From contig DTZQ01000493.1 of assembly GCA_012961305.1 (NCBI GenBank), forward strand, positions 1 through 26,270: a stretch of DNA of 26,270 nucleotides, given 5' to 3'. The notes beneath the pieces were generated by a model that had not been told where the DNA came from, searched no databases, and worked only from the letters and a program-made list of their open reading frames with translations. The translations under genes and the position numbers were made by a program. Shown piece after piece: positions 53 through 19,543 of this stretch. The DNA is from Armatimonadota bacterium. GTDB taxonomy: Bacteria; Armatimonadota; UBA10988; DTZQ01. Numbering within the stretch: position 1 is the stretch's first letter; every line of letters starts with the position of its first letter.

Positions 53-1120
53 ATGTCTGAAGAAGTCCCTATGTTGCAGTTGCAGGATATTTGCCTGCGC
101 AAAGGTAACTTCTCCCTGGAGCACATTTCCTTCGCCGTGCAGCCGGGGGAGTGTTTCGTCCTTTTAGGGCCCACCGGCACGGGCAAGACCACCGTCTTGG
201 AGACCATCGCCGGGCTCAACCGTCCTCTGCACGGGGAGGTGTGGATTGATGGTCGGGCAGTTACCCATCTCAAGCCAGAACAGCGACAGATTAGTTACGT
301 CCCCCAGGACTATGCCTTGTTCCCCCACCTGCGGGTGATGGACAACCTAACCTTGGCCTGTCGGCTGCGGCGAATGCCCCGCCTGGAGATAGAAGGCCGG
401 CTGAGGGAACTGGTAGAACTGCTGCACTTGGAGCCTTTGTTGTCCCGCTGGCCCCACCACTTGAGCGGGGGGGAGAAACAGCGGGTGGCCCTGGCCCGGG
501 CCCTCATGATTCGGCCGCAGGTCCTACTTTTGGATGAACCCCTTTCGGCCCTGGATGCGGCCGCGCGCCGCTCCGTGCGGGGGGAGTTGAAACGAGTCCT
601 CAACCTGGCCCAGGCGACCACGATTATCGTGACCCACGATTACGTGGACGCTTTCACCTTCGGCGACCACATCGGGGTGATGGATAAGGGTCGCCTCGTC
701 CAAGTGGGCACGCGGGAGGAACTCCTTTTTGCCCCTAAAAGCAAGTTCATCGCTGAGTTCACGGGGGTCAACTTCTTCACTGGCTACATTGACCAAGCCA
801 GTGAGGATGGTTTGAAAATCGCCCGGGTAGGGGAAGTTTGCCTGTACTGTCTCTCGGAGTTGGAGGGGGAAGTGTTCCTTTCCTTCTTCCCCTCCGACGT
901 CACCCTGAGTCGCACTCCCCCCCAAGGTTCCGCCCGCAATGTGCTCAAAGGTGTGGTGCGAGACTTGGTGCACCTGGGCGACCGAGTGCGGGTGGGTCTG
1001 GATTGCGGCCTGCCTTTGGTGGCGGAAGTAACAGCGCAGGCGGTGGAGGAATTGCACCTACGGGAGGGGGATGAGGTGTTCGCCTCCTTCAAGGCCATTA
1101 GTGTCAAGACCTACCGGTGA
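53..1120 (+). CDS. modC: Molybdate/tungstate ABC transporter ATP-binding subunit (ModC/WtpC-like) with C-terminal TOBE domain
   Basis: Walker A GPTGTGKT, signature LSGGEKQRVALARAL, Walker B LLLDEP, H-loop VTHD, and a C-terminal TOBE with SARN. Start moved from 38 to ATG 53, which follows GGAGGA at 40-45. Confidence 0.85.
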   Translation: MSEEVPMLQLQDICLRKGNFSLEHISFAVQPGECFVLLGPTGTGKTTVLETIAGLNRPLHGEVWIDGRAVTHLKPEQRQISYVPQDYALFPHLRVMDNLTLACRLRRMPRLEIEGRLRELVELLHLEPLLSRWPHHLSGGEKQRVALARALMIRPQVLLLDEPLSALDAAARRSVRGELKRVLNLAQATTIIVTHDYVDAFTFGDHIGVMDKGRLVQVGTREELLFAPKSKFIAEFTGVNFFTGYIDQASEDGLKIARVGEVCLYCLSELEGEVFLSFFPSDVTLSRTPPQGSARNVLKGVVRDLVHLGDRVRVGLDCGLPLVAEVTAQAVEELHLREGDEVFASFKAISVKTYR

Positions 1121-1124
1121 GCCT

Positions 1125-1188
1125 ATGGAGTCAGGCCCTTTAGGGCCGTCGAGGCGTTAGTAGACGGGGCTCAGGCCCCCGAGTCCAA
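1125..1188. repeat. Inverted pair of 25-bp REP-like elements (REP doublet)
   Basis: 1125-1149 reads ATGGAGTCAGGCCCTTTAGGGCCGT. 1164-1188 reverse-complements to TTGGACTCGGGGGCCTGAGCCCCGT. A third copy lies at 9818-9842. Confidence 0.7.
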
Positions 1189-1209
1189 AGTTTGGGAGGA
1201 GGTTTCAAC

Positions 1210-1944
1210 ATGGGCGCCATAATCAACGAAGAAAAGGCAGGACAGAACTACTTGCGCATATTCTGCTCCTTGGTTCCGGCCCCGCCGCTGCGGGCTGCTG
1301 GACGGGTCTTCGCAGATAAGTTCGGGGTGGAGGTGGATTTAACTGCTGGCAAGCCGGAGGGATGGGCTCCTCTGGTCATCGGAGGGGAAGCGGGGGATGT
1401 TATCTGCTGCGGAGCGGAGTACCTGTTGGACGAGTTTGAGGATGCAGGGGCGATTATTAAAGAGTCGCGCCGAACGGTTGGTTACCGCCGGTCGGTGCTC
1501 ATCGTGGCCCCGGACAATCCGAAAGGCATCACTTCCTTGGCTGACCTGACGCGGCCAGAGGTGCGGGTGGGCATTGCCGTGGGCGGCTGTCCGAAGGGAA
1601 TTTGGGACGATATTTGCAGTAAGGCGGGCCTGACCGATGCAGTGCGGCGCAATATCGTGGTGCACGCCGATGGGTGTGGGTCACTTATTCGTGCCCTCAC
1701 CCAGGGCGAAATTGACGTGGGCTTTGGCTGGAGTTCCTTCTGCTGCTTCGCTCCCCAGAACGTGGCGGCGGTGGAACTATCCCGCGATTTGCAGGTGTAC
1801 CGCAGCACCTCCGTGGCTATCACTTCCTTCAGTCCCCGCAAGGAACTGGCCCGTCAGTTCATCGAGTTTCTGGTCACGGCTCCAGAAGCGCGGAAGTTCT
1901 ACGACGAGTTCGAAATGAGCCTCACGGTGCCTCCCCCGACTTAG
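1210..1944 (+). CDS. ModA-fold (PBP2) protein without signal peptide, 8 Cys
   Basis: LIVAPDNPKGITSLADLTRPEVRVGI, DVGFGW and ARQFIEFL are ModA-family segments. There is no hydrophobic N-terminus. ATG 1210 follows GGAGGAGG. Confidence 0.75.
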   Translation: MGAIINEEKAGQNYLRIFCSLVPAPPLRAAGRVFADKFGVEVDLTAGKPEGWAPLVIGGEAGDVICCGAEYLLDEFEDAGAIIKESRRTVGYRRSVLIVAPDNPKGITSLADLTRPEVRVGIAVGGCPKGIWDDICSKAGLTDAVRRNIVVHADGCGSLIRALTQGEIDVGFGWSSFCCFAPQNVAAVELSRDLQVYRSTSVAITSFSPRKELARQFIEFLVTAPEARKFYDEFEMSLTVPPPT

Positions 1945-1973
1945 ATTGGACGAGGAAAGGAGGTTGGGAAACC

Positions 1974-2933
1974 ATGATTATTCGGGCACGGGAACTTACC
2001 AAATACTACGGTGACCTCTTAGCGGTGGACCGGGTCTCTTTTGAGGTGCGGGAGGGTGAGGTTTTCGGTTTCTTGGGGCCCAATGGGGCAGGGAAAACGA
2101 CGACCATTCGGATGCTCATCGGCCTTTCGACCCCCAGTGGCGGTACGGCCGAAGTGGGCGGATTCGACGTGGTCAAACAGACAGTTCAGGTTAAGGAACG
2201 GATTGGAGTGGTGCCGGAGATTTCCAACCTGTACGATGAGTTGACCGTGGAGCAGAACCTGGTTTTTGCGGGACGGTTGTGCAAGATGGGGGGAGAAAGG
2301 TTGCAAGCGCGCATTGAGCACCTGCTGGAGTTCTTCCAGTTGCAGGAGAAACGAAAGGCTTTCTTTCGGCAACTTTCGCGGGGCCTGAAGCGCAAGGCGG
2401 TCATCGCCGCCGCCCTGCTGCACCAACCGCCCATCCTGTTCTTGGATGAACCAACCAGCGGATTAGACGTGCTCAGTGCCCGTTCCCTACGCAACCTCAT
2501 TCGAGAATTAAACGCCTTGGGGACAACCATTTTCCTCACCACGCACAACATCGAAGAGGCCGACCAACTTTGCCATCGGGTAGGCATTATCGTGCAGGGT
2601 AAATTGGTCGCCCTGGACACCCCAGAGCGGCTCAAGGCCCGCACCCAGGATAGACAGGCGGTGGAGGTTACCTTCTCCACAGGGGCGGAGGAGTTCTTGG
2701 CAGAACTGAAGGAAATCCCCTTCGCCCGCCAGGTGACTCAGCAGGGAGACAAGGTGCGAATCCTCTGTGCCGACGGTTCGCTGGCAGTGCACGAGTTGGT
2801 GAAATTCGCCGAGGCGCGAGGGGTGCAGATTGAGACCTTGAACACCCTCCGTCCCACTTTGGAGGATGCCTTTGTGGAACTGACTGGCATCAGTTCGGAA
2901 ATTATGCGGATTGACAAGGAAAGGGGCAAATAA
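1974..2933 (+). CDS. ABC-2 type exporter ATP-binding protein (DrrA-like)
   Basis: GPNGAGKTT, LSRGLKRK, LFLDEPTSGLD, LTTHNIEEADQLC and C-terminal PTLEDAFVELTG. SD GGAGG upstream. Confidence 0.9.
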   Translation: MIIRARELTKYYGDLLAVDRVSFEVREGEVFGFLGPNGAGKTTTIRMLIGLSTPSGGTAEVGGFDVVKQTVQVKERIGVVPEISNLYDELTVEQNLVFAGRLCKMGGERLQARIEHLLEFFQLQEKRKAFFRQLSRGLKRKAVIAAALLHQPPILFLDEPTSGLDVLSARSLRNLIRELNALGTTIFLTTHNIEEADQLCHRVGIIVQGKLVALDTPERLKARTQDRQAVEVTFSTGAEEFLAELKEIPFARQVTQQGDKVRILCADGSLAVHELVKFAEARGVQIETLNTLRPTLEDAFVELTGISSEIMRIDKERGK

Positions 2934-2934
2934 A

Positions 2935-3669
2935 ATGTGGGAGCGAGTGAAGATTTTGCTGTTCATTATGCTCAAAGACGCACACGTTTACTATTTCAAA
3001 CCGCCGAATGTAATGTGGGGCATTGGTTTTCCCATCGTCCTCATGTTGGTAGTTTTCTTCCTGCGGGGACAGGGTGACCTGCCGGCGCTGTTTCCGGGCA
3101 TCGTGGCCGTGGCGGTCATTTTCGGCACTTCCAGCATGGCGGCGGAGGTAATCATTTTGGAGCGTTTGGCGGGCACCTTCGACCGGCTGCTGCTGGCTCC
3201 CGTCCCCCTGTGGGCTCTCATTCTGGCTAAAGCCGTGGGAGGAGCCCTCTTTGGGTTGGCGACCACGGCAGCGGTCATCGTCATTACTCTGGGTTTCGTG
3301 CCGACCAGCATCTATTCGCCGCTGTTGTTTATTTTGGTGTTGACGGTGTCGGCGCTCACTTTCAGCCTCTTAGGAACTTTAATCTCGGCTTCGGTAAAGG
3401 CGGCCTGCGACGCTCCCCTGATGAGCAATATGCTGCGCTTTACCATGATTTTCCTCTGTGGCGTATTCGTGCCTGTTTCCCAGATGCCGGAAGTTGTGCG
3501 CCCGCTCGCTTACTTCCTGCCTTTGACCTACGCCGTAGATGGACTGCGCCAAGCCAGTTTGGGTCAGCCGGATGTGGTCAATGCGTACTTAGCGCTGCTG
3601 GTGCTGGGCGGGATAGCCGCCCTGCTTTTTGCCCGCACCCAGCAGGTCCTTCGGCAGAGTTTGCCGTAG
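2935..3669 (+). CDS. ABC-2 type exporter permease
   Basis: About 6 hydrophobic segments, ERLAGTFDRLLLAP, and FLCGVFVPVSQMP...LPLTYAVDGLR. ATG 2935 lies 1 nt after the stop of the ATPase gene. Confidence 0.88.
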   Translation: MWERVKILLFIMLKDAHVYYFKPPNVMWGIGFPIVLMLVVFFLRGQGDLPALFPGIVAVAVIFGTSSMAAEVIILERLAGTFDRLLLAPVPLWALILAKAVGGALFGLATTAAVIVITLGFVPTSIYSPLLFILVLTVSALTFSLLGTLISASVKAACDAPLMSNMLRFTMIFLCGVFVPVSQMPEVVRPLAYFLPLTYAVDGLRQASLGQPDVVNAYLALLVLGGIAALLFARTQQVLRQSLP

Positions 3670-3701
3670 CCGCTCTGTCAACGGCTAAAGGGAGCACCGA
3701 G

Positions 3702-4535
3702 GTGAGCCCCAAAGTCTGGTGGATAATTGGCGGGACGTTGGTCATCCTGTTGCTCATCTGGCAGGGGGTCCGGGTGGAAAGGGAAATTCATGCTACTGGC
3801 GCTGCGCCCAAACCGTTGTTAGAGAAAGGGGAGCGAAAAATTCAGGTTTTCGCTGGTGCGGCGAGCAAACCGGCCTTGGAGGAAGTGGCCCAGTTGTACG
3901 AGCAGCAGTATGGGACGAAAGTTGAGTGTACTTTCGGTGGTTCGGGGACCATGCTCTCCCAGATGCTTTTGGCTCAGCGGGGTGATGTGTACGTTCCCGG
4001 CTCGGATGACTTCATGGACAAAGCGGAGCAGAAGGGGGTGGTGGAGAAAGGTCGGCGGGAAATTGTGGCCTATCTCCTGCCGGTCATCGCCGTGCAGAAA
4101 GGCAATCCCCAGAACATCCAATCTTTGGAGGATTTGGCTCGGCCGGGGCTCCGAGTGGGCATTGCTCGCCCGGAAGCGGTCTGCTTAGGGGACATTGCGT
4201 TGGAGATTTTCGAGCAGGCCGGGTTGCGGGAGAAAATTGAACCCAACATCGTCACTCAGGCTACCAGTTGCTCCCACACCGCAGCCCTGGTCAAAATGAG
4301 GCAGGTGGACGCAGTTATCGGTTGGGATGTCTTTGCTGCCTGGTATCCGGAAGACATTGAGATGGTGCCGTTGCCCTCAGAACTGCGGCACTGGCGCTAC
4401 ATCCCCGCTGCGGTCACGAAGTTCGCCAGGGAGGAAAGGGAGGCGCAGCGGTTCGTGGATTTTCTCTGTTCCCAAACCGGAAAGGGAATTTTCCAAAGGC
4501 ACGGTTACACAGTTGTTGCTCCGGGGAGGGAGTAA
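3702..4535 (+). CDS. modA: Molybdate/tungstate ABC transporter substrate-binding protein
   Basis: N-terminal hydrophobic anchor; canonical FAGAAS and FGGSG oxyanion segments; AVQKGNPQNIQSLEDL. Extra Cys in EAVCLG and TSCSH. GTG start. Confidence 0.8.
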   Translation: MSPKVWWIIGGTLVILLLIWQGVRVEREIHATGAAPKPLLEKGERKIQVFAGAASKPALEEVAQLYEQQYGTKVECTFGGSGTMLSQMLLAQRGDVYVPGSDDFMDKAEQKGVVEKGRREIVAYLLPVIAVQKGNPQNIQSLEDLARPGLRVGIARPEAVCLGDIALEIFEQAGLREKIEPNIVTQATSCSHTAALVKMRQVDAVIGWDVFAAWYPEDIEMVPLPSELRHWRYIPAAVTKFAREEREAQRFVDFLCSQTGKGIFQRHGYTVVAPGRE

Positions 4536-4567
4536 AAGGCCGTAGGCTTTACCTTAGGAGGATGGGA

Positions 4568-5806
4568 ATGGGCGAGACTCTGATTAAAGCGGTAGACGTT
4601 TTCAAGTGCTGCATTTTAACCTGGGATTTCTTCCCGGTGGTCCTGCCGGCCTTTCTGATTGCAGGAGCGATACCGGTCTTTGTCCCGGCGGTGCACATTC
4701 TGCGCTATTTGGGCTATGGGGCTCGGAAAGTAGTAGCCTACACTGCGGCTTCCTTTTCCGGGTTCATCATCGCCATGTGTTCCTGCAACATCGTGCCCTT
4801 AGCGGCAAGCATTTACCGGCGGGGGGCTGGTATCGGACCGGCCTTTGCCTTTCTGTACGCCGGGCCGGCCATTAACTTCATTACCATGGTCTGGGTTTTT
4901 CAGGTAGTAGGGTGGCGCATGGGCCTGTGGCGGGCGGCTGCGGTGCCGATTATTGCTGTGCTCATTGGCCTGCTCATGCAGTTGATTTTCCGCCGGGAGG
5001 ACACCACCCGCCGGGTGCATTTTCAGGCCGTAGTCCAGCGCGAAATTTACACCGGAGAGGCTGTCCACCCCCAGAAGTTGGGCCTGCTTTTCGGGTTGCT
5101 CATTGGCATTTTAATTTTCGGGGCCAAGGGCCTGCCCTGGTGGCTGCGCTTCACCACGCTGGTAGTTTTCGGCGGGGGGCTAGTGCTGGTGGTCCGCCGG
5201 TGGTTCACACGGGAGGAGTTGCGGGATTGGCTGGAGGAGACCCTTCACTTCCTCAAATTGGTCCTGCCCATTCTGGTGTCGGCCATTCTGGCCATCGGCC
5301 TTGCCTTCCGCTACATCCCCATTAAATGGATGCATGACCACATTTATCCTTTGGTCGGCGACAATTCGCCCCGGGCCACTTTCATTGCTGCGGCGTTCGG
5401 CTCGGTGATGTATTTCCCCATCCTCACGGAGGTCGCCTTTACCAAGGCCCTGTTGAAGTACGAAATGTTGGGAGTAGGCCCGGCCCTGGCCATTCTGCTC
5501 AACGGCCCGGGGGTAAGCCTGCCGGGAGCCTTGCTGCTCCTGCGCATTTTCGGCTGGAAGAAGACGTTAGTTTACGAAGGACTGGAGATGTTCCTGGGCG
5601 GCTTAACGGCCATGTGGTTCGGACGATTATATGGCGAATATGTCTGCCCTTGCCAGACGGGGGAAGGGGCCAATCCGGTGGAGACCCTCATTGCCGTCAT
5701 AGTCATGATGGTGGTTATCGTCTTGGCGGCTTTCATCGTCTTTCGCTTTTCCTTGCCTCCCGCAGAGAAGGAGCCACCCTTAGCCCCGGAGGAAGCAAAG
5801 GCATGA
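4568..5806 (+). CDS. DUF318/ArsP-type permease
   Basis: MCSCNIVPLA, GAGIGPAFAFLYAGPAIN, a second half with MYFPILTEV and GPALAILLNGPGVSLP, and many TM segments. ATG 4568 has better spacing from AGGAGG than ATG 4562. Confidence 0.8.
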   Translation: MGETLIKAVDVFKCCILTWDFFPVVLPAFLIAGAIPVFVPAVHILRYLGYGARKVVAYTAASFSGFIIAMCSCNIVPLAASIYRRGAGIGPAFAFLYAGPAINFITMVWVFQVVGWRMGLWRAAAVPIIAVLIGLLMQLIFRREDTTRRVHFQAVVQREIYTGEAVHPQKLGLLFGLLIGILIFGAKGLPWWLRFTTLVVFGGGLVLVVRRWFTREELRDWLEETLHFLKLVLPILVSAILAIGLAFRYIPIKWMHDHIYPLVGDNSPRATFIAAAFGSVMYFPILTEVAFTKALLKYEMLGVGPALAILLNGPGVSLPGALLLLRIFGWKKTLVYEGLEMFLGGLTAMWFGRLYGEYVCPCQTGEGANPVETLIAVIVMMVVIVLAAFIVFRFSLPPAEKEPPLAPEEAKA

Positions 5807-6645
5807 AACGCATCGGCTGGCTTTTGAGTCTGGGACTGGTGGGGATTCTGGGGGGCTGTTCGCGCCCGGGGGGAGGTTCCTCTTCCCCACTCCCTCAGGG
5901 AACGACCCCCCCTCGGCAGGTGGAGGTCTTTGTGCCCTGTGGCATGATCATTCCCTTCAACAAGGTCAAAAGGCTGTTCCGGGAGCAGACGGGCCTGGAG
6001 GTGGACATTTTCTTCGAGAATGCGGTAAACCTGCTGAAGCGCATTCGCAAAGGGGCTCGTCCCGATGTGCTGGTCACGCCCGGGGAACTGGAGATGAAGC
6101 AGATGGAAGAGGAGGGTTACCTTGCTCCGGCAAGTGTGCGCACTTTTGGCACCTACCAACTCGTCCTCATCGTGCCCGGCCGCAACAAGGCTGGCATTAC
6201 TGCCCTTTCGGACCTAACCAAACCCTCGGTCAAACAAATTGCCATTGCCGACCCGGAGCAAAATTCGGTGGGCTACTATGCCCGCGAGGCCCTGAAAAAC
6301 CTGGGACTGTGGGAGGGGGTGCAGGATAAACTGGTGACCCATTGGCATGCCTTGCAGGCGGCGAAGTACGTGGTCAGCAGCCTGGTGGACGCGGGCCTTT
6401 ACTATGCTTCCTGTCCCTTTGACAGTGCGCCGGAGAAATTGGGCAACCGGCCCGGGCCCTACCGGGTCATTGAAGAGGTTCCGCCGGAGGCCTATCCGAA
6501 GGTTAAAGTGCAGGCGGGCCTCCTGCGGGAGGCTCCTCATCCGGCCGCGGGTTGGCAGTTTCTGGAGTTCCTGCTCTCTCCCCAAGCCCAGCACACCCTG
6601 GCCCAATGGGGCCTGCCCAATTACTCAAAGGAGGAAAACCCATGA
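5803..6645 (+). CDS. ModA-like lipoprotein with VPCG/YASC cysteine pair
   Basis: Lipoprotein signal MKRIGWLLSLGLVGILGG-C; ModA segments RPDVLV, IAIADPEQNSVGYYAREAL, FLEFLLSPQAQ. ATGA overlap with the permease stop. Confidence 0.8.
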   Translation: MKRIGWLLSLGLVGILGGCSRPGGGSSSPLPQGTTPPRQVEVFVPCGMIIPFNKVKRLFREQTGLEVDIFFENAVNLLKRIRKGARPDVLVTPGELEMKQMEEEGYLAPASVRTFGTYQLVLIVPGRNKAGITALSDLTKPSVKQIAIADPEQNSVGYYAREALKNLGLWEGVQDKLVTHWHALQAAKYVVSSLVDAGLYYASCPFDSAPEKLGNRPGPYRVIEEVPPEAYPKVKVQAGLLREAPHPAAGWQFLEFLLSPQAQHTLAQWGLPNYSKEENP

Positions 6646-7973
6646 AGAAAATGATTTTCGCCTGTTTGGTCGGGGCTCTCCTGCAGGGAGTCCTCGGCTG
6701 TGCCAAACCAAGTGAACAAGCAGGTCAGGCCGCCCCTCCCCCGGCCTTGCCGGAGGGCCTGGAGGAGCCCCAGGTATGGAAATTCACCTACGGGCCGGAG
6801 GAGGCCAAAGTGGTAGTGGAGGCCTTCTATCCCTTGACCGAGGCCCACCAGTGGGCGAAGGAAGTGGTGGAAAAGGTCTGTCAGGAGCATCCGGGCAAGG
6901 TGCGGGGCGTCGTGGTGGACTTTCGCCACGAGAAAGGCTCGGAGTTGTTTGTGCAAAAGGGGCTGACCTGTGGCACCATTCTCATCAACGGGGAGGACAC
7001 TTTCGATTTAGAGGGGCGCACCGTCATTTTCCAACAGGCGGAAGGGGGAATGTGGACCGAAGAGGATTTACGGCGCGTGGTGGCCCAGAAAGTGGAGGAG
7101 GCCTACGGAGCGACGGAAGGGGAGGAAGGTACGTCGGCAGAGACTTCGGCGGCGGCGCCGTCAGCCCAGACCCCTTCTCAGCCGAAAACCTCGCCTCCGA
7201 CTGCTCCCCCCCGCCTGGCGGGGGGACCGGCCCGACCGGAGGTCAAAGGAGAAGTTGAAGTCTACGTGCCCTGCGGAGTGGCTGGACCCTACGGGGAGGT
7301 CGCGGAGGCCTTTAAGGCCCAGTATCCCAACGTCCGGCTGCGCCCCCGGGTGGAAAATTTCTACGTCCTGCGCAATCGGGTGCGCGATGGAGCCACACCT
7401 GACGTGTTCCTCGTCTTCGGGCCCGTGGACTTAAAGCCCCTTGAGGAACGTGGGCGATTGGTTTCCGCCACCTACGTCAAATTGGCTAAAATTTCCCTGG
7501 CCCTCATTGTGCCCCCCAGCAATCCGGGGCAGGTGAAATCCCTGGAGGATTTGGCGGGGCCTGCGGTCAAGCAGATTGCCCTGGGCAAAGTGGACTTGGG
7601 TTCGGTGGGCTACTGCGCCCAACAGGCCCTCACCCGCGCCCAGTTGTGGGATAAGGTCAAAGACAAAGTTGTGGAAATCAAAATGCCCAGGCAACTAAAG
7701 GTCGTCGCCGCCGAGGGACAGGTAGAGGCAGCCATCGTGTTCAAAAGTTGTCTGTACGAAGCCCCCCGCCCCGGAAAGGAGCCAGAACCGCTCAAGGCTA
7801 CTTACATAGGCGACGTGCCCGCCCACCTGTACGACGAAATTGAGGTGGGCGCAGTGATGATAAAAGGCGCGCCTCACCCGGAGATGGCCCGCCTCCTGTT
7901 GGATTTTCTGGACTCCCCGGAAGTCAGAGCCACTTTTGTAAAGTGGTGGTTCACCCCTTTGGAGGAAGAGTGA
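6642..7973 (+). CDS. Lipoprotein: thioredoxin-like domain + Pro/Ala/Ser/Thr linker + ModA-like domain (VPCG/FKSC)
   Basis: Signal MKKMIFACLVGALLQGVLG-C; Trx-like strand-helix pattern (VVEAFYP...GLTCGTILING); ModA segments IVPPSNPGQVKSLEDL and LLDFLDSPE. ATGA overlap at 6642-6645. Confidence 0.75.
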   Translation: MKKMIFACLVGALLQGVLGCAKPSEQAGQAAPPPALPEGLEEPQVWKFTYGPEEAKVVVEAFYPLTEAHQWAKEVVEKVCQEHPGKVRGVVVDFRHEKGSELFVQKGLTCGTILINGEDTFDLEGRTVIFQQAEGGMWTEEDLRRVVAQKVEEAYGATEGEEGTSAETSAAAPSAQTPSQPKTSPPTAPPRLAGGPARPEVKGEVEVYVPCGVAGPYGEVAEAFKAQYPNVRLRPRVENFYVLRNRVRDGATPDVFLVFGPVDLKPLEERGRLVSATYVKLAKISLALIVPPSNPGQVKSLEDLAGPAVKQIALGKVDLGSVGYCAQQALTRAQLWDKVKDKVVEIKMPRQLKVVAAEGQVEAAIVFKSCLYEAPRPGKEPEPLKATYIGDVPAHLYDEIEVGAVMIKGAPHPEMARLLLDFLDSPEVRATFVKWWFTPLEEE

Positions 7974-8216
7974 ATGCGCCTGCTCGTGTTCACCGATGAA
8001 AGCGAGGAGAGCCAGCGGCAAAAGCAAATCGCCTGGGGCGTGGCCCGTCGCTTTCCCCAGGTGGAAGTGGTGGAACTGCCCTTAACTGGCGAGGAGGCCC
8101 AACGCCGGGGCATTCCCCGTGCACCAGCAGTAGTGGCAGAGGGGTTCATCCTCTCGGTAGGAAAATTGTTGTCCGCGGGTCAACTGCGAAGGTTCCTGGA
8201 GCGAAAGGTAGCCTGA
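7974..8216 (+). CDS. Small thioredoxin-fold protein lacking CxxC
   Basis: Aligns by eye with the next gene (EEAQRRGIPRAPAVV vs EEADQYGVVMTPTVM) and contains no Cys. It abuts the previous stop (TGA-ATG), and its own stop overlaps the next ATG. Confidence 0.65.
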   Translation: MRLLVFTDESEESQRQKQIAWGVARRFPQVEVVELPLTGEEAQRRGIPRAPAVVAEGFILSVGKLLSAGQLRRFLERKVA

Positions 8217-8485
8217 TGGTCACCATTACCATCATCAAGGCCCCTACGCCCTGCCCGCAATGTCATTTGGCGGAACAGGTGGCCCAACAAGTGGCCGAAA
8301 ATTACCCCGGTGAGGTCGCGGTGAAGGTTCTCAGTGTACTGGACGAGGAGGCCGACCAGTACGGGGTGGTAATGACCCCGACGGTGATGGTGGACGATGT
8401 AATCGTCAGCGTGCGAAAAGCCCCCCGGCGGGAGCGTCTTGCAGCCTTGATTGCTCGGAAATTGGGATGTTTGCCGAATACTTGA
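8216..8485 (+). CDS. Small thioredoxin-family protein (Thioredoxin_3-like), CPQC
   Basis: PCPQC active site, YGVVMTPTVMVD cis-Pro segment, TGATG coupling. Confidence 0.85.
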   Translation: MVTITIIKAPTPCPQCHLAEQVAQQVAENYPGEVAVKVLSVLDEEADQYGVVMTPTVMVDDVIVSVRKAPRRERLAALIARKLGCLPNT

Positions 8486-8510
8486 CAAAAAAAGATGATA
8501 GGAGTATAAT
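8482..8510 (+). promoter_or_regulatory. sigma70-type promoter, perfect consensus
   Basis: TTGACA 8482-8487, 17-nt spacer, TATAAT 8505-8510, upstream of the MerR-family gene. Confidence 0.85.
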
Positions 8511-8577
8511 AAATAAAAGTGCCCCCAATGCTAAGGGCCAAATTGCCCGGGAGGCCCGTTTGTGGCGAAGGTTCATC

Positions 8578-9255
8578 ATGCGACCGGCGAAGAAACAAGA
8601 AGGTGTTTATACCATTGGAGTGGCGACCAAGTTGCTGGGGGTTCATCACCGCACGCTACGCATTTACGAGGAGGAAGGGCTCATTCTCCCCCAGCGGGAC
8701 CCTAAGAACAATCGGCGGCTTTATTCCGACCAGGACTTGGTCTGGATTCGCTGCATTCGCCAACTCATTCACCAGGGCGGTCTCACCGTCAAGGCCATCC
8801 GCCGCTTATTGGATTTAGTGCCCTGCTGGGAGATTAAACACTGCCCGGAGGAACAGTGGCGTCGGTGCTTGCCCAACTTGAACATTCCCCATATGAAATT
8901 GCCTCCCCAGGTGGCTCCCCCGGAACTGCTCTTGGAGGGAAAAAAGGCCCGAGCCGAGAAAACGGTGGAAATCAAACTTTTCTATGGGGTGCGGGAATTT
9001 GGGGCAATTTTGCCCTGTTCCAAGTGCATTAAAGCCGAGCGCGTTCTTCGCAAAGTGGCCCAGAGGTTTGGGGACCGAATTACCATCGTGAAGTACGAGG
9101 CTTCCTCGCCGGAAGCAGACCGCTATGAGGTGCTTCTCACCCCTACCATTTTCCTGGACGAGGAGCCGTTGGTGATAGGCGGGGTTCCTTCGGAGCCGGC
9201 GTTAGAGAGGGCGATTGAAAAGTCCTTGGCAAGTAGAAGGGAAAGTGGGGAATAA
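8578..9255 (+). CDS. MerR-family regulator with Cys-rich CW motif and C-terminal thioredoxin domain
   Basis: YTIGVATKLLGVHHRTLRIYEEEGL...RRLYS HTH, then PCWEIKHC...C, then PCSKC and TPT in a Trx domain. The start is set at ATG 8578 because the promoter lies inside the longer ORF-track call. Confidence 0.85.
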   Translation: MRPAKKQEGVYTIGVATKLLGVHHRTLRIYEEEGLILPQRDPKNNRRLYSDQDLVWIRCIRQLIHQGGLTVKAIRRLLDLVPCWEIKHCPEEQWRRCLPNLNIPHMKLPPQVAPPELLLEGKKARAEKTVEIKLFYGVREFGAILPCSKCIKAERVLRKVAQRFGDRITIVKYEASSPEADRYEVLLTPTIFLDEEPLVIGGVPSEPALERAIEKSLASRRESGE

Positions 9256-9275
9256 AAAATGATTTTGGGATATTA

Positions 9276-9310
9276 TTTACAATAATTTTTGTAAGTTGAT
9301 TTCACAATAA
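9276..9310. promoter_or_regulatory. Candidate operator: three ACAA/TTGT half-sites in an AT-rich intergenic region
   Basis: Dyad TTACAA-N6-TTGTAA at 9277-9294, and direct repeat TT(T/C)ACAATAA at 9276 and 9301, upstream of SD AAGGAG and ATG 9328. Confidence 0.5.
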
Positions 9311-9327
9311 AAAAGGAGTATATCAAC

Positions 9328-9753
9328 ATGGCTCAATCAGAGTTCAAGGTAGCCCTGGTCGCCTGCGACGGCATTGGGCGGTTGGTTTCCACCGTGGTGC
9401 GGCAGGCGGCCTACAAGGTCATGCAGCAGCGACCGGAAGAAGTGATTTTAGTGGACACCGGGATGCTCCTGGCCGACCAACCGGAGGCTTTGGAGGTCAT
9501 CAACAAATACCCAGTGGTGGTCATTGACGGCTGTCGCCCGCGCTGTGGGACCGTGATGACCGAAGGCCATGGCGTCAAACCGGCGGTTACGGTGTACACC
9601 CGGGATGTGGTGGCCCAGGAGAAAATCTCCTTGGTGGGCGAGCAACGGCGAGGTCTGGGCGAAAAGGGTATGCGCCTGGCCGAAGCCGTCGCCCAGCGAG
9701 TAATTGAAGCCGTTGACCTGCTCATCGCCGAAGAGATGGTGAGCACGCTTTAG
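9328..9753 (+). CDS. DGC-domain putative zinc-binding protein
   Basis: ACDG...VVIDGCRPRC pattern of the DGC family; SD AAGGAG. Confidence 0.75.
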   Translation: MAQSEFKVALVACDGIGRLVSTVVRQAAYKVMQQRPEEVILVDTGMLLADQPEALEVINKYPVVVIDGCRPRCGTVMTEGHGVKPAVTVYTRDVVAQEKISLVGEQRRGLGEKGMRLAEAVAQRVIEAVDLLIAEEMVSTL

Positions 9754-9757
9754 GGAG

Positions 9758-9977
9758 TTGAGATTTCAAACCTGGTAACCATTCAGCCGGCTGTTTCTAA
9801 AGGGACAAGGGGACCCTTTGGAGTCAGGGGCTTCAGCCCCGTTAGGACGGCGCTTGTCCAAAAGGACTGAGGACTGAGTCGTGAGTACTGAGTTCCTCCG
9901 CCCTCGGTCCTCAGCACTGGTGAAGGAGGGGGTGAGGGGGTGAAGGCTGAGCGGTTACCAAACTGAAATTTGAGATT
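9758..9977. repeat. Nested intergenic repeat composite, MITE-like
   Basis: Imperfect ~26-bp inverted arms at 9763-9788 and 9945-9969, and flanking direct repeat TTGAGATT at 9758-9765 and 9970-9977. Inside are a REP copy, a GGACAAG/CTTGTCC stem, heptamer repeats and GGTGA(A)GG repeats. Confidence 0.55.
9818..9842 (+). repeat. REP-like element, third copy
   Basis: TTGGAGTCAGGGGCTTCAGCCCCGT with hairpin GGGGCT-TC-AGCCCC; matches the copies at 1125-1188. Confidence 0.7.
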
Positions 9978-9994
9978 GCTTGGAGGTAACCATC

Positions 9995-10456
9995 ATGCCA
10001 GAGAAAGTAACTTTACAGCCTTGTTTGGGCCTGACGCCGGTGGAAACGACCGTCGGACGACAGGCTTGTTACTTGGTGGCCGAGGAACTGCGGGCGGGGA
10101 AGGCCAATTTGGGCTGCGGGCCGGCCCTGAACGCCCGGGTGCAGGAAGACCTCGATTTCATCGAGTATTACCCCATTATCGCGGTAGAGGGTTGTGACCG
10201 CTGCTGTGCCAGTCGGCTGGTGCGCAAGTTCGGACAGGAACCAGAGGTAGCGGTCATCGTGCCGGAGGTGTTGCGCGAGGCCGGGATTTCCTTGGCGGCG
10301 GAAAAGGGGTTAGTCGCAGAGGTGGACCCCTACCAAGTACGCTGTGGAGCAGGAAAACCTGACCCTACCCCGCATTTGGAGTTAGACCATCCCGCCGTGC
10401 AGGCCGTGGCCCAACGGTGCGTGGCCGAGTTGGACCGCCTGCTGTCCGCCCCATAG
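9995..10456 (+). CDS. DGC-like putative zinc-binding protein, 8 Cys
   Basis: PCLG...GCGP...IIAVEGCDRCC; paralogous to 9328-9753 (TTVGRQAC vs STVVRQAA, YPIIAVEGC vs YPVVVIDGC). ATG 9995 follows GGAGG. Confidence 0.7.
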   Translation: MPEKVTLQPCLGLTPVETTVGRQACYLVAEELRAGKANLGCGPALNARVQEDLDFIEYYPIIAVEGCDRCCASRLVRKFGQEPEVAVIVPEVLREAGISLAAEKGLVAEVDPYQVRCGAGKPDPTPHLELDHPAVQAVAQRCVAELDRLLSAP

Positions 10457-10511
10457 CCAGCAGTCACGAATGCGAGGCGCGAGTAACCAGAGACTCGCCG
10501 CTCACAATTGG

Positions 10512-10556
10512 AAATCTGCTGCCCCCAGGGACCTTCGGGGAGGCGGGATTTTTTCT
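10512..10556 (+). terminator. Possible intrinsic terminator or attenuator
   Basis: Imperfect GC-rich stem (CTGCCCCC / GGGGAGGCGG) followed by ATTTTTTCTATTT, lying between the second DGC gene and the aquaporin gene. Confidence 0.4.
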
Positions 10557-10603
10557 ATTTCCCCCGGAAGAGGACAGAATTTGGAGGACGGGAGGAAACC
10601 CTG

Positions 10604-11476
10604 ATGAATGAGCGAAGGAAACTCTACGGCGAATGTCTGGCCGAGTTCATTGGCACCTTTATCCTGGTGTTCTTCGGCGTCGGCTCAGTTCACACGGCGG
10701 TCTCCACGCAGGCGCAAGCCGGACTGTGGCAGGTAGCGGTAGTGTGGGGAGTGGCTATCGCCTTGGCCATCTACGCGACAGGGGCGGTAAGCGGCTGTCA
10801 CATCAACCCGGCCATTACCCTGGCTTTCGCGGCCTGGCAGGGGTTCCCCTGGCGGAAAGTGCTGCCCTACATTGCTGCTCAGGTCGCCGGAGCCTTTGCC
10901 GCTGCTGCTGTACTCTATGGACTATTCCACGGTGCCATTGCCCATTTTGAGGCCCAGCACAGCATCGTGCGCGGCCAGCCGGGCAGCCAACTGTCGGCCA
11001 TGATGTACGGCGAATATTTCCCCAATCCGGCCATCTTAGGCACCGATGCCGCCGCTTGGGCCCAAGTTTCCCACTTGCAAGCCTTTTGCGCGGAACTCGT
11101 CGGCACGGCTTTTTTGGCCTTTTTCGTCTTTGCCCTGGTGGACCCCCAAAACTGGGGAGCGCCACGGGGAAATATGTTCGCTTTGTTCATCGGCTTGACG
11201 GTGTCCATCGTCATCTCCATCATTGCTCCCCTCACCCAAGCGGCCCTGAACCCTGCCCGGGACTTCGGTCCGCGACTATGGGCCCTGCTGGCCGGTTGGG
11301 GACCTATTGCCATTCCCGGCCCCCGTGGCGGGTTCTTTACCGTGTACATTCTGGCCCCCCTCTGGGGAGGCCTGTTGGGTGGATTAGTCTATGAACGGTT
11401 AATTGTACCGTTCCGAAAGGTTTCCAAGACCGGAGAACAGGAGGTTGCTTTAGATGAGGGAAAGGGTCGAGGTTAA
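10604..11476 (+). CDS. glpF: MIP-family aquaglyceroporin (GlpF-type)
   Basis: Two NPA boxes, SGCHINPA and ALNPARDFGPR (NPARD is the glyceroporin signature); AEFIGT and AELVGT. ATG 10604 follows GGAGG. Confidence 0.85.
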   Translation: MNERRKLYGECLAEFIGTFILVFFGVGSVHTAVSTQAQAGLWQVAVVWGVAIALAIYATGAVSGCHINPAITLAFAAWQGFPWRKVLPYIAAQVAGAFAAAAVLYGLFHGAIAHFEAQHSIVRGQPGSQLSAMMYGEYFPNPAILGTDAAAWAQVSHLQAFCAELVGTAFLAFFVFALVDPQNWGAPRGNMFALFIGLTVSIVISIIAPLTQAALNPARDFGPRLWALLAGWGPIAIPGPRGGFFTVYILAPLWGGLLGGLVYERLIVPFRKVSKTGEQEVALDEGKGRG

Positions 11477-11696
11477 AGTCCCCGAATTCGAAACGGAGTG
11501 CCAGGCCTACCTGAGTTTCTGGTACAAACAGGAGGGAGAAGAGGTCACGGCGGGGGAAGATTTGGTTGAGTTCGAGACCGACAAGGCAGCCGTCACTGTG
11601 GAGGCTCCAGCCACGGGCAAACTGGCGCAAATTTTCGTGGGCGAGGATGAAGAAATCACCAGCGGGCAGGTGGTGGGCATTATTGAAGCCATCTAA
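11454..11696 (+). CDS. Stand-alone lipoyl-domain protein
   Basis: W...GEEVTAGEDLVEFETDKAAVTVEAPATGKL: the lipoylation motif ETDKA is intact. 80 aa with no catalytic domain; overlaps the aquaporin end by 23 nt. Confidence 0.85.
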   Translation: MRERVEVKVPEFETECQAYLSFWYKQEGEEVTAGEDLVEFETDKAAVTVEAPATGKLAQIFVGEDEEITSGQVVGIIEAI

Positions 11697-11778: not shown

Positions 11779-12768
11779 CTAATCGAAGTGGCAAATAGCG
11801 CAGAAATCGCGCTGGTGGCAGCGAAAACAGGAAGCATCGGGGGCAAAGGAAGCCACGGTGCGATGGCCCTCTGTCACCCATTCGGGGGGATGAGGCAGGG
11901 GAAGGCCATGGCAGTCGCGGCAGTAATTCGCCTCGTGGCAAGGAGCACAACTGAGGAAAGTCTCAGCACTACCCTGGCCATGAGTTTTCCGCCATTGGGC
12001 ATCATGGGAGGCTGGGGGAGTGCGAGCGTGACAAGCCTGGCAGAAGGAAGTTCCGTGACATTTTTCGCACCGGTCTGGCTGTTGCTGGGCGGCGGATTGG
12101 TGCTGGCGAGTTCGCCAATTCGGTGGATGAGGCAGGGGAAGGCCATGACAGTCCCGGCAGTAATTAGGAGGGTGACATTGGCGGCAGGTCGCCCGTTCCT
12201 GAGCGGCCCGTGGGCGGTGGGTCCTCCCCCAACCCGCCGGATGGGGGGAAAGGGTTTGGTGGCAGCGGTCGCAGAAATCCCTTTCGTGGCAGGCATCGCA
12301 GGCTGGCTCTGGCTGGCGAAAGGAAGCATGTTGACGGAGGAAATTCGGGGAATGCCAGGCAGGTTTAACTTCCGCTAAACGCAAGTGGCACAGGGGACAG
12401 CGGTTGGGAACCCGTTGTCCATCGTGACAGCCGGCCCGAGTGCACTCCTCCATGTTGGGGGTGATGTGCCCGCGATGGCCCAAGTTCGGATGGCACGCCG
12501 GACAGTGAAGGCCAGGGCCCCGATGACGAGGGTGGGAAAAGTTGACCCGCCTTGAGTCCTTCTCCTGCAGGAGAGTATGGCACTCCAAGCAAACTAACCC
12601 CCTAAGGCGAGGCTGAGTCCCCATCAGCAGAAGCCGAGCGTGAGGTTTCATCTCCACCCTTCGGTTCCCCCCTTGAAGGGGCCCCTTCGGTTTCTCCTTC
12701 GCTGCACAACTCCACCACAGCAGGGGGAGACTCAATATCAGCAGTAAAATCCCTCTCCTTCGTCTCAT
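11779..12768 (-). CDS. Multiheme cytochrome c lipoprotein (13 CxxCH + 1 CX4CH)
   Basis: Signal MRRRRGILLLILSLPLLWWS-C and SD AAGGAG upstream; heme motifs counted in the translation; five W-x3/4-H...CxxCH-x4-CxxCH modules. Confidence 0.88.
   Translation of the reverse strand: MRRRRGILLLILSLPLLWWSCAAKEKPKGPLQGGNRRVEMKPHARLLLMGTQPRLRGLVCLECHTLLQEKDSRRVNFSHPRHRGPGLHCPACHPNLGHRGHITPNMEECTRAGCHDGQRVPNRCPLCHLRLAEVKPAWHSPNFLRQHASFRQPEPACDACHERDFCDRCHQTLSPHPAGWGRTHRPRAAQERATCRQCHPPNYCRDCHGLPLPHPPNWRTRQHQSAAQQQPDRCEKCHGTSFCQACHARTPPASHDAQWRKTHGQGSAETFLSCAPCHEANYCRDCHGLPLPHPPEWVTEGHRTVASFAPDASCFRCHQRDFCAICHFD
11888..12165. repeat. Intragenic 41-bp direct repeat (39/41 identical)
   Basis: 11888-11928 and 12125-12165 both encode NYCRDCHGLPLPHP; the offset is 237 nt (79 codons). 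Confidence 0.85.
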
Positions 12769-16497: not shown

Positions 16498-16522
16498 TTT
16501 GCAATTGCCAATCTCGGTCTGG

Positions 16523-16564
16523 CCCTCACCCCGGCCCCCTCTCTCGCCCCCCAGGAGAGGGGAG
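16523..16564. repeat. CCCTCACCCC...CCCTCTC/GAGAGGG-type intergenic palindromic element
   Basis: CCCTCACCCC at 16523-16532, then perfect 8-bp arms CCCCTCTC (16536-16543) and GAGAGGGG (16555-16562). Confidence 0.55.
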
Positions 16565-16729
16565 CCTCTTCAGGGGGCCTATAATTGGGCAATTTGGTGG
16601 TCTCTCTGCAAGGCTGGCTTGGCTAAAGCCCGGACCCCCTAACCAGCCGGGGAGGATAATCCGCCGGCGTCGAGGCTTTAGCGGGTCTGAACAGGGCATC
16701 TGCGGTGCGAACGATGTAATGCCCGCCAA

Positions 16730-19522: not shown

Positions 19523-19543
19523 AGTTTTTCCTCCTTGTCCCCC

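Follow-up and report, generated by a model that had tools for sequence, protein, structure and literature searches.

Does a run of closely spaced genes encode one machine or several? The question is raised by the window studied here, the whole of contig C493 (26,270 bp) in a metagenome-assembled Armatimonadota genome (G000; 713 contigs, 4.4 Mb, 60% G+C, 89% complete, 5% contamination). Fifteen genes on the plus strand, numbered g01 to g15 in their order, occupy positions 53-11696, and an original prediction had taken them for a single undescribed thiol-based system that traffics metalloids or oxyanions. We lean towards a different reading, in which the run is composed, like a mosaic, of four units, A to D, and includes an undescribed thiol-based module, core C, instead of constituting one 15-gene machine. 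This thiol-based module is tied to a mod-type importer and corresponds to about g05 to g10 together with g01 and probably g15. We read the run as a mosaic because it contains an internal promoter, because unit D stands alone in other genomes, and because g02 to g04 are not conserved. Genomes, contigs and loci are denoted by handles starting with G, C and L, respectively.

At the first level of description, much of the original prediction holds. The coordinates bear out the tight packing of the genes: g06/g07 and g07/g08 overlap by 4 nt each, g09/g10 by 1 nt and g14/g15 by 23 nt, g08 and g09 abut (0 nt), and the remaining intergenic gaps measure 1-147 nt, save for 241 nt between g12 and g13. 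Families were assigned to the products with Pfam and NCBIfam models, which confirmed those named beforehand (modC, ABC-2, DUF318, MerR-Trx, two DGC proteins, aquaglyceroporin and lipoyl protein). Four ModA-fold proteins had been announced as well, and g02, g05, g07 and g08 all match SBP_bac_11. The statement that nearly all products carry Cys motifs was too strong. Cys content is mildly raised, at 1.73% in the run against 1.13% in the long open reading frames (ORFs) of the genome, but a CxxC, CxC or CC motif is missing from nine of the 15 products (g03, g04, g05, g07, g08, g09, g12, g14 and g15). None of the 15 frames contains an in-frame TGA.

Permease, binding proteins and thioredoxin folds of the core

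Core C opens with g06 (4562-5806), a permease of the ArsP/DUF318 family that matches ArsP_1 with 171 bits against a cut-off of 32. Its matches to the SO_0444 Cu/Zn efflux model (57 bits) and to SaoE (67 bits) are weak and both far under cut-off, and a comparison of the permease sequence with the PDB gave no match. The protein is characterized by two Cys-x-Cys motifs: a transmembrane segment contains CSCN, and Y-x-C-P-C lies close to the C-terminus. They are kept in 21 of 22 orthologues, the remaining one reading Y-x-C-A-C, and all four Cys are invariant throughout the 22. Across the orthologues, the membrane motif takes the form (M/A/V/T/I)CSC(N/S). The reference motif of ArsP is TPFCSCS. The g06 protein has the ArsP_1 match and a CxC motif in the membrane, and does not have a motif of the TPFCSCS type.

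Two lipoproteins of the ModA fold follow, to which we refer as two-Cys solute-binding proteins (SBPs) 1 and 2. SBP 1, encoded by g07 (5803-6645), matches SBP_bac_11, carries a lipobox and shows the motif order VPCG ... HWHA ... CPF; P45, C46, N73, SVGY and C204 are invariant. SBP 2, encoded by g08 (6642-7973), joins a thioredoxin (Trx)-fold domain at the N-terminus to an SBP_bac_11 domain at residues 206-437, again with VPCG. Both exceed the cut-off of 62.5 for the modA model (TIGR01256), with 109.1 for g07 and 70.9 for g08. An AlphaFold (AF2) model of g07, with a predicted local distance difference test score (pLDDT) of 86, has ModA structures as its best fold matches in the PDB, at a template modelling (TM) score of approximately 0.8.

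The deviation from ModA lies in the pocket. Aligned with ModA of Escherichia coli, g07 and g08 show VPCG in place of AAAS (Ser12), which puts a Cys at the Ala11 position and turns Ser12 into Gly; xSS (Ser39) becomes (D/E)NA, with Ala or Asn for Ser39; PAG becomes SVG; and VY(Tyr170)xTDA becomes Y-x-x-C-P-(F/L). DV (Val152) is replaced by HWHA, with its two His, in the g07 clade and is variable otherwise. Neither protein retains the ModA set of Ser12, Ser39, Ala125, Val152 and Tyr170 equivalents. The natural first Cys occupies the position of Ala11, which was mutated together with Arg153 to create a disulfide across the cleft of E. coli ModA (PDB 3AXF), and because of this coincidence the Cys pair of g07 and g08 plausibly faces the cleft. 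How large the clade is can be judged from a search with a profile, which covered 1.84 billion representative proteins (clusters at 50% identity): the signature xPCG plus Y..C occurs in approximately 100 of the best 150 clusters, and the canonical AAAS, SS, PAG, DV and VYxTDA appear afterwards. Public records label these proteins molybdate-binding proteins, and a search of the ESM Atlas with g07 returned generic molybdate-SBP clusters only.

Given such labels, g07 and g08 might be ordinary divergent molybdate/tungstate paralogues, in which the two Cys form a stabilizing disulfide or a redox latch and ArsP is a mere neighbour. Extracytoplasmic disulfides are common in thermophiles, both proteins score over the modA cut-off and bear the name of molybdate-binding proteins in public records, and the cross-cleft disulfide engineered at the first-Cys position works in E. 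coli ModA. We nevertheless regard this explanation as rather improbable. All five pocket positions of ModA change together across the approximately 100 clusters, and the ArsP and SBP 1 genes overlap by 4 nt not just in the window, but also in L024 and L053-L054, with the gene order kept across families. Furthermore, CcdA, TlpA-like and Trx partners, described in the next section, argue for free thiols.

Four thioredoxin-like modules had been counted in the run, and as folds all four stand, two by Pfam (g10 and g11), one by hhalign (g09) and one by Foldseek (the g08 N-domain). The family of the g08 N-domain has no Pfam match; its AlphaFold model (pLDDT 83) retrieved thioredoxin folds in all 50 of the top 50 Foldseek matches from the PDB (E approximately 2e-3). 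It contains no CxxC. Invariant are the Gly and the Cys of a G-L-x-C motif, and His is frequent at the usual active-site position. In several genomes, this type of domain is encoded as a gene of its own. The small protein g09 (7974-8216), an accessory of the core, has neither a Pfam match nor a single Cys, and yet aligns with the Trx_3 alignment in hhalign at 96.5% probability (E 7.6e-10); homologues occur in L043, L059 and L014. The second accessory, g10 (8216-8485), is a Thioredoxin_3 protein of the MTH895/ArsE type (40 bits) with CPQC at its active site. In L013 and L016, its homologue comes third in the order two-Cys SBP 2, NifS-type desulfurase, g10 homologue. CxxC is thus found in two of the four Trx-fold modules, g10 (CPQC) and g11 (CSKC), and a relay of dithiols, as originally suggested, is consistent with these two, but not with g09 and the g08 N-domain.

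From these parts, a mode of action for core C can be proposed. By means of their thiolate pair, the two periplasmic lipoproteins would bind a species that is soft and thiophilic and either descends from a tetrahedral oxyanion or has the shape of one. Exchange of this species, in one direction or the other, would take place with the permease and its Cys, with the Mod-type ABC permease next to it, or with both. The thiols would be kept reduced by Trx-fold partners, elsewhere also by CcdA, a TlpA-like protein and ArsD. This working, which we infer, would resemble the logic of MerP-MerT and the architecture of the SAO system, to which we return in the last section.

Distribution, gene order and neighbours of the core

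The core is not confined to the window. An ArsP-type permease, two-Cys SBP 1, a Trx-fold domain (fused or separate) and two-Cys SBP 2 follow each other in a conserved order, and the succession of ArsP, two-Cys SBP and Trx-fold/two-Cys SBP was seen in approximately 30 loci. Within the taxonomic order of the source genome, core C is present in G003 and G006; beyond it, at least seven genomes of other families have it (G007, G014, G017, G022, G029, G057 and G148). It was also located in 20 loci of species-representative genomes, all of them from Armatimonadota, and also on metagenome contigs. For a quantitative view, 151 Armatimonadota genomes were drawn evenly from the phylum, representing 99 genera. 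With a threshold of E <= 1e-30, members of the g07 family are found in 28 of these genomes and in 17 of the genera.

Some deviating copies were noticed along the way. The source genome itself has a partial second trio of SBP1, Trx-like and SBP-like genes on the 4.5-kb contig C117 (L011:2198-4209), with 65-71% identity to g07; paralogy, strain variation and contamination are all conceivable explanations. A single stop codon interrupts the frame of each of two SBP1 homologues, TGA in G100:C35:2812-3522 and TAG in G006:C648:17050-17796. Pseudogenes or errors of sequencing could account for both, and recoding for the TGA. On contigs of the Fervidibacter sacchari type, the module is split by a CopG-like gene and a phage-type integrase gene (L021:9696-11779). 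This lineage has no SBP 2, and an FbpB-like double permease is located downstream of its TOBE ATPase.

The commonest partner of core C is a Mod-type ABC importer, and in at least six lineages the core is situated next to, or fused with, ModA-, ModB- or ModC-like genes. The most intimate connection was found in the Fervidibacter lineage, where a lipoprotein of approximately 680 residues unites a Trx-fold domain, two-Cys SBP 2 and a g05-type ModA domain (L024:10859-12889, L026:10841-12895 and L030:10784-12829), directly followed by a ModB-type permease gene and often by a ferritin-like gene. A g05-type ModA gene, a permease gene and often a TOBE ATPase gene are adjacent in L043, L014/L059, L076, L077 and L086. 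Among the models, TIGR01581 for the NifC-like Mo porter fits the neighbouring permeases best (186-199 bits against a cut-off of 210), ahead of ModB, with CysT and CysW lower. In five genomes, a modB hidden Markov model was used to locate neighbours, and its best matches were all slightly under cut-off. The idea of a hybrid between a mod/wtp importer and ars accessory genes therefore survives in part: a conserved core does lie beside a mod importer, but the 15 genes are not one system.

Further neighbours belong to sulfur and thiol metabolism in a broad sense. A NifS/IscS-type cysteine desulfurase gene adjoins the core in L013, L016, L043, L054/55 and L058, and MoaD/ThiS-type proteins with a GG end recur nearby, together with MoeB/ThiF-like enzymes. 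ArsD, with its CC....C triad intact, is encoded inside the L059 and G017 loci. A PALP enzyme, TauE and OsmC/thioredoxin also occur. CcdA and a TlpA-like gene are found among the neighbours in L059 and L014, periplasmic thioredoxins recur as well, and such thiol-reducing partners argue that the periplasmic Cys are reduced, functional thiols and not structural disulfides.

The TlpA-like gene, of the AhpC/TSA family, is located just upstream of ArsP (L059:7110-7613; also in G017 and at L014:19438-19998). It is called as two fragments, with an in-frame TGA at the first Cys of the CxxC motif (..FFSTH-TGA-LSC..), and judging by this context it probably encodes a U-x-x-C selenoprotein.

Some points weigh against a module of permease, binding proteins and importer. 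The SBP pair occurs without ArsP in L078, L080 and L086, the last of which has the SBP pair and an ABC importer. ModAB is not present in the L016 and L013 loci, and L016 has ArsP and no importer. Finally, the arrangement of the two Cys in space is deduced from sequence alignment only.

Importer genes, insert and MerR-Trx cassette

The importer is represented in the window by unit A. An open frame of 54 codons at 3-167 on the plus strand, truncated by the contig start, has no family match by itself. We regard it as probably the 3' end of modB, because it lies upstream of modC and because the order ModA-ModB-ModC is found in L043, L059, L076 and L077. The adjacent g01 (53-1120) encodes a ModC/WtpC-like ABC ATPase with ABC_tran (120 bits) and TOBE (48 bits) domains; its top NCBIfam model is the tungstate ATPase WtpC (341 bits, cut-off 440), and modC scores 226. 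Homologues with 40-50% identity adjoin two-Cys SBPs in L014, L043, L059, L076 and L077. The third member, g05 (3702-4535), is a ModA-type protein with a transmembrane anchor (SBP_bac_11 195 bits; modA 91.6, over the cut-off of 62.5). It retains the equivalents of Ser12 and Ser39 of E. coli ModA, and Tyr170 is changed to Trp. Its orthologues adjoin two-Cys SBP 2 or are fused to it.

Between g01 and g05 lies unit B. Its first gene, g02 (1210-1944), encodes an SBP_bac_11 paralogue (128 bits) with eight Cys that reaches 27.4 with the modA model, under the cut-off of 62.5, and has no hydrophobic N-terminus and no signal peptide. The other two are g03 (1974-2933), a DrrA-type ATPase (TIGR01188 drrA, 315.7 bits, over the cut-off of 312), and g04 (2935-3669), its DrrB-type membrane partner (ABC2_membrane, 96 bits). 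In 150 genomes of the phylum, no orthologue of g02 with more than 32% identity was found, and its relatives are ordinary ModA genes. Likewise, no ABC-2 pair was found beside other two-Cys SBP loci: g04 is without any match there, and the matches of g03 are generic ABC ATPase genes closer to g01. Due to these two absences, we conclude that g02 to g04 are a lineage-specific insert. As g02 is not conserved in the phylum sample, g02 to g04 were rejected as part of the core system.

Unit D starts behind g10. A consensus sigma-70 promoter, TTGACA-17-TATAAT, is located at 8482-8510 on the plus strand, right after g10; it matches at 12 of 12 positions and is the sole perfect site in 12.9 kb. As it falls within the long reading frame first assigned to MerR-Trx, we place the start of g11 at 8578 and let g11 head a new transcription unit. 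The protein (g11, 8578-9255) consists of a MerR-type helix-turn-helix (HTH) domain (MerR_1, 68 bits), a Cys-rich linker and a Thioredoxin_3 domain (33 bits) with CSKC. Metal-sensor equivalogs match its HTH only and remain sub-cut-off (HspR 61 of 105, ZntR 33 of 168), and the C-terminus is formed by the linker and Thioredoxin_3 instead of a metal-binding loop. More than 220 homologues share this MerR-Trx architecture.

Two DGC proteins and a channel complete the unit. The DGC family is a distant relative of DsrE. A 72-nt AT-rich spacer precedes g12 (9328-9753), and a repeat-rich, GC-rich spacer of 220 nt with nested inverted repeats (9758-9977) separates it from g13 (9995-10456); the two products match DGC with 48 and 39 bits. 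The aquaglyceroporin gene g14 (10604-11476) matches MIP with 171 bits and TIGR00861 with 185.8 (over the cut-off of 171), and its NPA and NPARD motifs read HINPA and LNPARDFGPR. NPARD is a mark of the glycerol-facilitator branch.

This cassette leads a life of its own. In L061 (7102-9675), L062 (6999-9681) and L063 (234-1956), a MerR-Trx gene is divergent from DGC-DGC(-MIP), with the MIP gene after the DGC pair in L061 and L062; L061 is a complete Armatimonadota genome and L062 a 4.56-Mb contig. No ArsP, SBP or mod genes are located within 9 kb of these three cassettes. Conversely, tblastn revealed no homologues of g11 to g14 at approximately 45 loci with relatives of g07 and g08, the sole hit being the Trx part of g11 in L059 (weak, E 1e-4). 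Co-occurrence of the VPCG-type ModA, DUF318, DGC, MerR-Trx, MIP and lipoyl genes, which had been put forward as a check, is thus observed for the order of ArsP, two-Cys SBP and Trx, but not for g11 to g14. We consider unit D probably a metalloid- or thiol-stress-responsive unit. The intergenic regions of L061 and L062 share a TGAAATTTATGTGAA...TTGACA segment. A common operator was sought between these regions and the region upstream of the DGC genes in the window, and a short TGTGAAAT resemblance was all that appeared.

The last gene of the run, g15 (11454-11696), encodes a stand-alone lipoyl domain (Biotin_lipoyl, PF00364, 53.6 bits), with the putative lipoylatable Lys in ETDKA. The only other copy found is in L043, where a NifS-type desulfurase gene, a g09 homologue and g15 are arranged in this order upstream of ArsP. 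Direct neighbours there, g09 and g15 flank unit D here, which suggests that the unit D block was inserted between them.

What remains of one integrated thiol relay that spans all 15 genes, from modC to the lipoyl protein, and passes on a thiophilic metalloid or thio-oxyanion? Its genes are co-directional and closely spaced, ArsP, Trx_3 and DGC occur together in an arsenic-induced operon elsewhere, and g09 and the lipoyl protein are adjacent, next to ArsP, in L043. The internal consensus promoter speaks against such a relay, as does the MerR-Trx/DGC/DGC/MIP cassette, which is conserved alone and not at other two-Cys SBP loci. Besides, g02 to g04 are unconserved and two of the four Trx folds are without CxxC. 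Taken together, we think an integrated relay improbable and keep to the mosaic with core C at its centre.

Further genes of the window lie on the minus strand. Two multihaem cytochrome c genes (11779-14413) point towards the 3' end of the 15-gene run, with which no connection was seen; the product of the larger one is fused to a cytochrome b/formate-dehydrogenase-gamma-like membrane domain. Three very large genes follow at 14512-23518, with products of 661, 930 and 1324 residues. The 930-residue product contains fn3 domains, the other two are without Pfam match, and all three are very Cys-poor.

Ligand of the core and relation to known systems

Which ligand would core C handle? One candidate reading is dedicated uptake of thiolated molybdate or tungstate. 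In sulfidic water, the two-Cys SBPs would bind ions of the MoS4/WS4 type and deliver them to the Mod-type importer, the ArsP-type permease or both, with MoaD, MoeB and NifS serving molybdopterin synthesis. ModA is both the fold and the nearest family of the SBPs, and the fusion of SBP 2 with ModA is followed by ModB; MoaD-type, MoeB-like and NifS-type genes lie within the clusters; and the source genome has four AOR-type tungstoenzyme genes, MoeA and MoaE. The changes from Ser to Gly or Ala would widen the pocket. How thiomolybdate is taken up is still an open question (PMC11484787). The same study reports for Methanococcus maripaludis a 'permease' beside another modA homolog (MMP_RS08475/08480) that is not regulated by the Mo source (PMC11484787). 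This archaeal pair might be an ArsP_1 permease with an SBP as described here. Nothing relevant was found in the literature on DUF318/ArsP together with molybdate or tungstate.

The phyletic tests, all of them made in the sample of 151 genomes, in which related genomes are not independent and no marker fits all carriers, counsel caution. AOR is found in only 6 of the 28 carriers of the core, and MoeA in 23 of 28 carriers compared to 79 of 123 non-carriers, a weak enrichment. It counts against a Mo/W ligand in particular that MoeA, MoaC and MoaE were not found in four carriers from four families (G003, G022, G057 and G148; 93-98% complete), two of which, G057 and G148, have the full operon including the ABC part. 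PF00384 matches do occur in these genomes without the molybdenum cofactor genes and may be NuoG-like. On balance, uptake of thiolated molybdate or tungstate in the form outlined above appears unlikely to us. Still more doubtful is the bolder claim that two-Cys lipoproteins and four-Cys permease make up a new binding-protein-dependent thiol-relay transporter for thiolated Mo/W or another sulfidised oxyanion.

Alternatively, sulfur or selenium could be the cargo. The Cys pair would then form a covalent adduct (tri- or polysulfide, or selenotrisulfide) with sulfane sulfur, thiosulfate or selenite, the Trx-fold partners would release the cargo, and cytoplasmic NifS and carriers of the MoaD/ThiF type would use it. 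Consistent with this, a NifS-type desulfurase gene is adjacent in five loci, ThiS/MoaD-ThiF, PALP, TauE and OsmC/thioredoxin are among the neighbours, and SBP_bac_11 includes sulfate/thiosulfate binders; the L059 operon contains the gene with TGA at a CxxC position, and SelD is over cut-off in 20 of the 28 carriers. Yet models of the Mo/W type outscore CysTWA for permeases and ATPase, carrier genomes have canonical CysTW-like pairs at other places, and no rhodanese, Sox or Dsr context was found at the loci. SelD, moreover, is not above cut-off in the source genome, in G003 and G006 of its order, in its sister order and in four f25 genomes. Sulfur or selenium uptake of this kind thus seems to us an unlikely explanation as well. 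The phyletic tests argue against a strict role in either Mo/W or Se metabolism, and with them the earlier suggestion of a thio-Mo/W/Se cargo loses ground.

Among the candidate ligands of core C, we therefore place trivalent As or Sb, organo-As(III) or thio-arsenic species first, as a tentative choice, because detoxification of a ubiquitous thiophilic toxicant has no phyletic exceptions and because the only experimental anchor lies here. Thiolated molybdate or tungstate comes behind as a less likely ligand, level with sulfane sulfur or selenite. We give little credit to the view that there is no special ligand and that the Cys pair acts as a redox latch on ordinary molybdate/tungstate binding, and least of all to a soft metal cation. 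The first choice, too, has to face contrary observations: arsR, arsC, acr3, arsA and arsM are all absent from the Pfam-annotated loci and from the recurrent neighbour clusters. To our knowledge, the known ArsP relatives are all exporters, and SBPs normally serve importers, so that both directions of transport are conceivable.

The experimental anchor is an operon of Pseudodesulfovibrio mercurii ND132 (operon C), in which ArsP, Trx_3 and DGC are encoded together and which is arsenic-induced, in good accordance with the original statement that the three families are neighbours in ars loci. Compared with this ArsP-ArsE-DGC arrangement and with ArsP of Campylobacter jejuni (TC 2.A.119), the window has the same families (PF03773, PF13192 and PF08859) and the CxC of the permease. 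It differs in that ArsR or another ars gene is missing, the three families do not adjoin one another, and the DGC genes are part of the separate MerR-Trx/MIP cassette. The core permease has (M/A/V)CSCN instead of TPFCSCS and a second, CPC motif, and periplasmic SBPs are interposed. The absence of arsR, arsC, acr3 and arsM from the window, stated at the outset, was confirmed with Pfam and NCBIfam models. In the rest of the 89%-complete source genome, a search for Acr3 gave no match, the match to the ArsB family is weak, and an ArsC-like gene of the low-molecular-weight phosphatase type is below cut-off and outside any ars context. A classical ars operon was rejected on the grounds of the missing arsR, arsC, acr3 and arsM in the window and of Acr3 in the genome.

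The closest described analogue of core C would be, by its composition, the selenocysteine-assisted organometallic (SAO) system of Clostridioides difficile and other anaerobes, whose function is inferred from comparative genomics (Haft & Gwadz 2022, bioRxiv 10.1101/2022.07.06.499078). A comparison with the C. difficile sao locus had been recommended, and it does reveal a similar parts list. Its ABC importer works with SBPs that have Cys/Sec pairs in their pockets, among them the additional lipoprotein SaoX. SaoE is an ArsP-family permease with CSC, SaoT a small protein of the MJ0307/Trx-like kind, and SaoD is DsrE-like. However, the window scores 158.6 of 360 for SaoA, 66.8 of 325 for SaoE and 20.2 of 65 for SaoT, and g07 and g08 have no match to SaoB or SaoX at E <= 0.001. 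MerB-like SaoL, SaoC with its CC-COOH end and selenocysteine are missing from the window, which in contrast has SBPs of the ModA fold and an importer of the Mod/NifC type, and the phylum is Armatimonadota. As all tested SAO models are under cut-off, membership of the locus in SAO was rejected.

With ModABC/WtpABC (PDB 1AMF/1WOD; archaeal WtpA), the run shares the fold (TM approximately 0.8), the size and the export as lipoprotein or anchored protein, next to ModB- and ModC-like genes, the TOBE ATPase and, in g05, the Ser12 and Ser39 equivalents. The differences are the pocket of g07 and g08, rebuilt with a Cys pair, and the ArsP-type permease as partner. A search of the literature for ArsP-type permeases paired with binding proteins, or for pocket Cys pairs in the ModA fold, found none.

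The likeness to mercury resistance is one of logic. In the Mer relay, the metal passes from periplasmic MerP with its two Cys to MerT or MerC, membrane proteins with a Cys pair, and on to cytosolic thiols. Core C matches this with a thiol pair in the periplasm, pairs of Cys in the membrane protein and Cys proteins in the cytosol, and a regulator of the MerR family is encoded nearby. There is, however, no homology to MerP, MerT or MerA, and the MerR-type regulator of the window belongs to another unit. A detoxifying enzyme was not identified in the run, and none of the 15 products has a MerB-like match.

If the Cys pair binds a ligand, a large branch of proteins, approximately 100 clusters that all bear the name 'molybdate ABC transporter substrate-binding protein', would be mis-annotated and have a different chemistry. 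Its members would be the first solute-binding proteins partnered with an ArsP/DUF318 permease, and core C as a whole a selenium-free analogue, in another phylum, of the still hypothetical SAO system. They would also provide purifiable proteins for the study of how thiophilic species are handled in sulfidic, metalloid-rich waters, including the acquisition of thiomolybdate (PMC11484787). Fervidibacter sacchari, in which the module is reduced to a form with ArsP and SBP1, is available in culture. The MerR-Trx/DGC/DGC/aquaglyceroporin cassette offers a second, simpler target for research on metalloid or redox sensing. Should a transporter of thiolated molybdate or tungstate prove true after all, anaerobes and hot-spring bacteria would have access to the form in which these metals predominate in sulfidic water and which is supposed to be unavailable.

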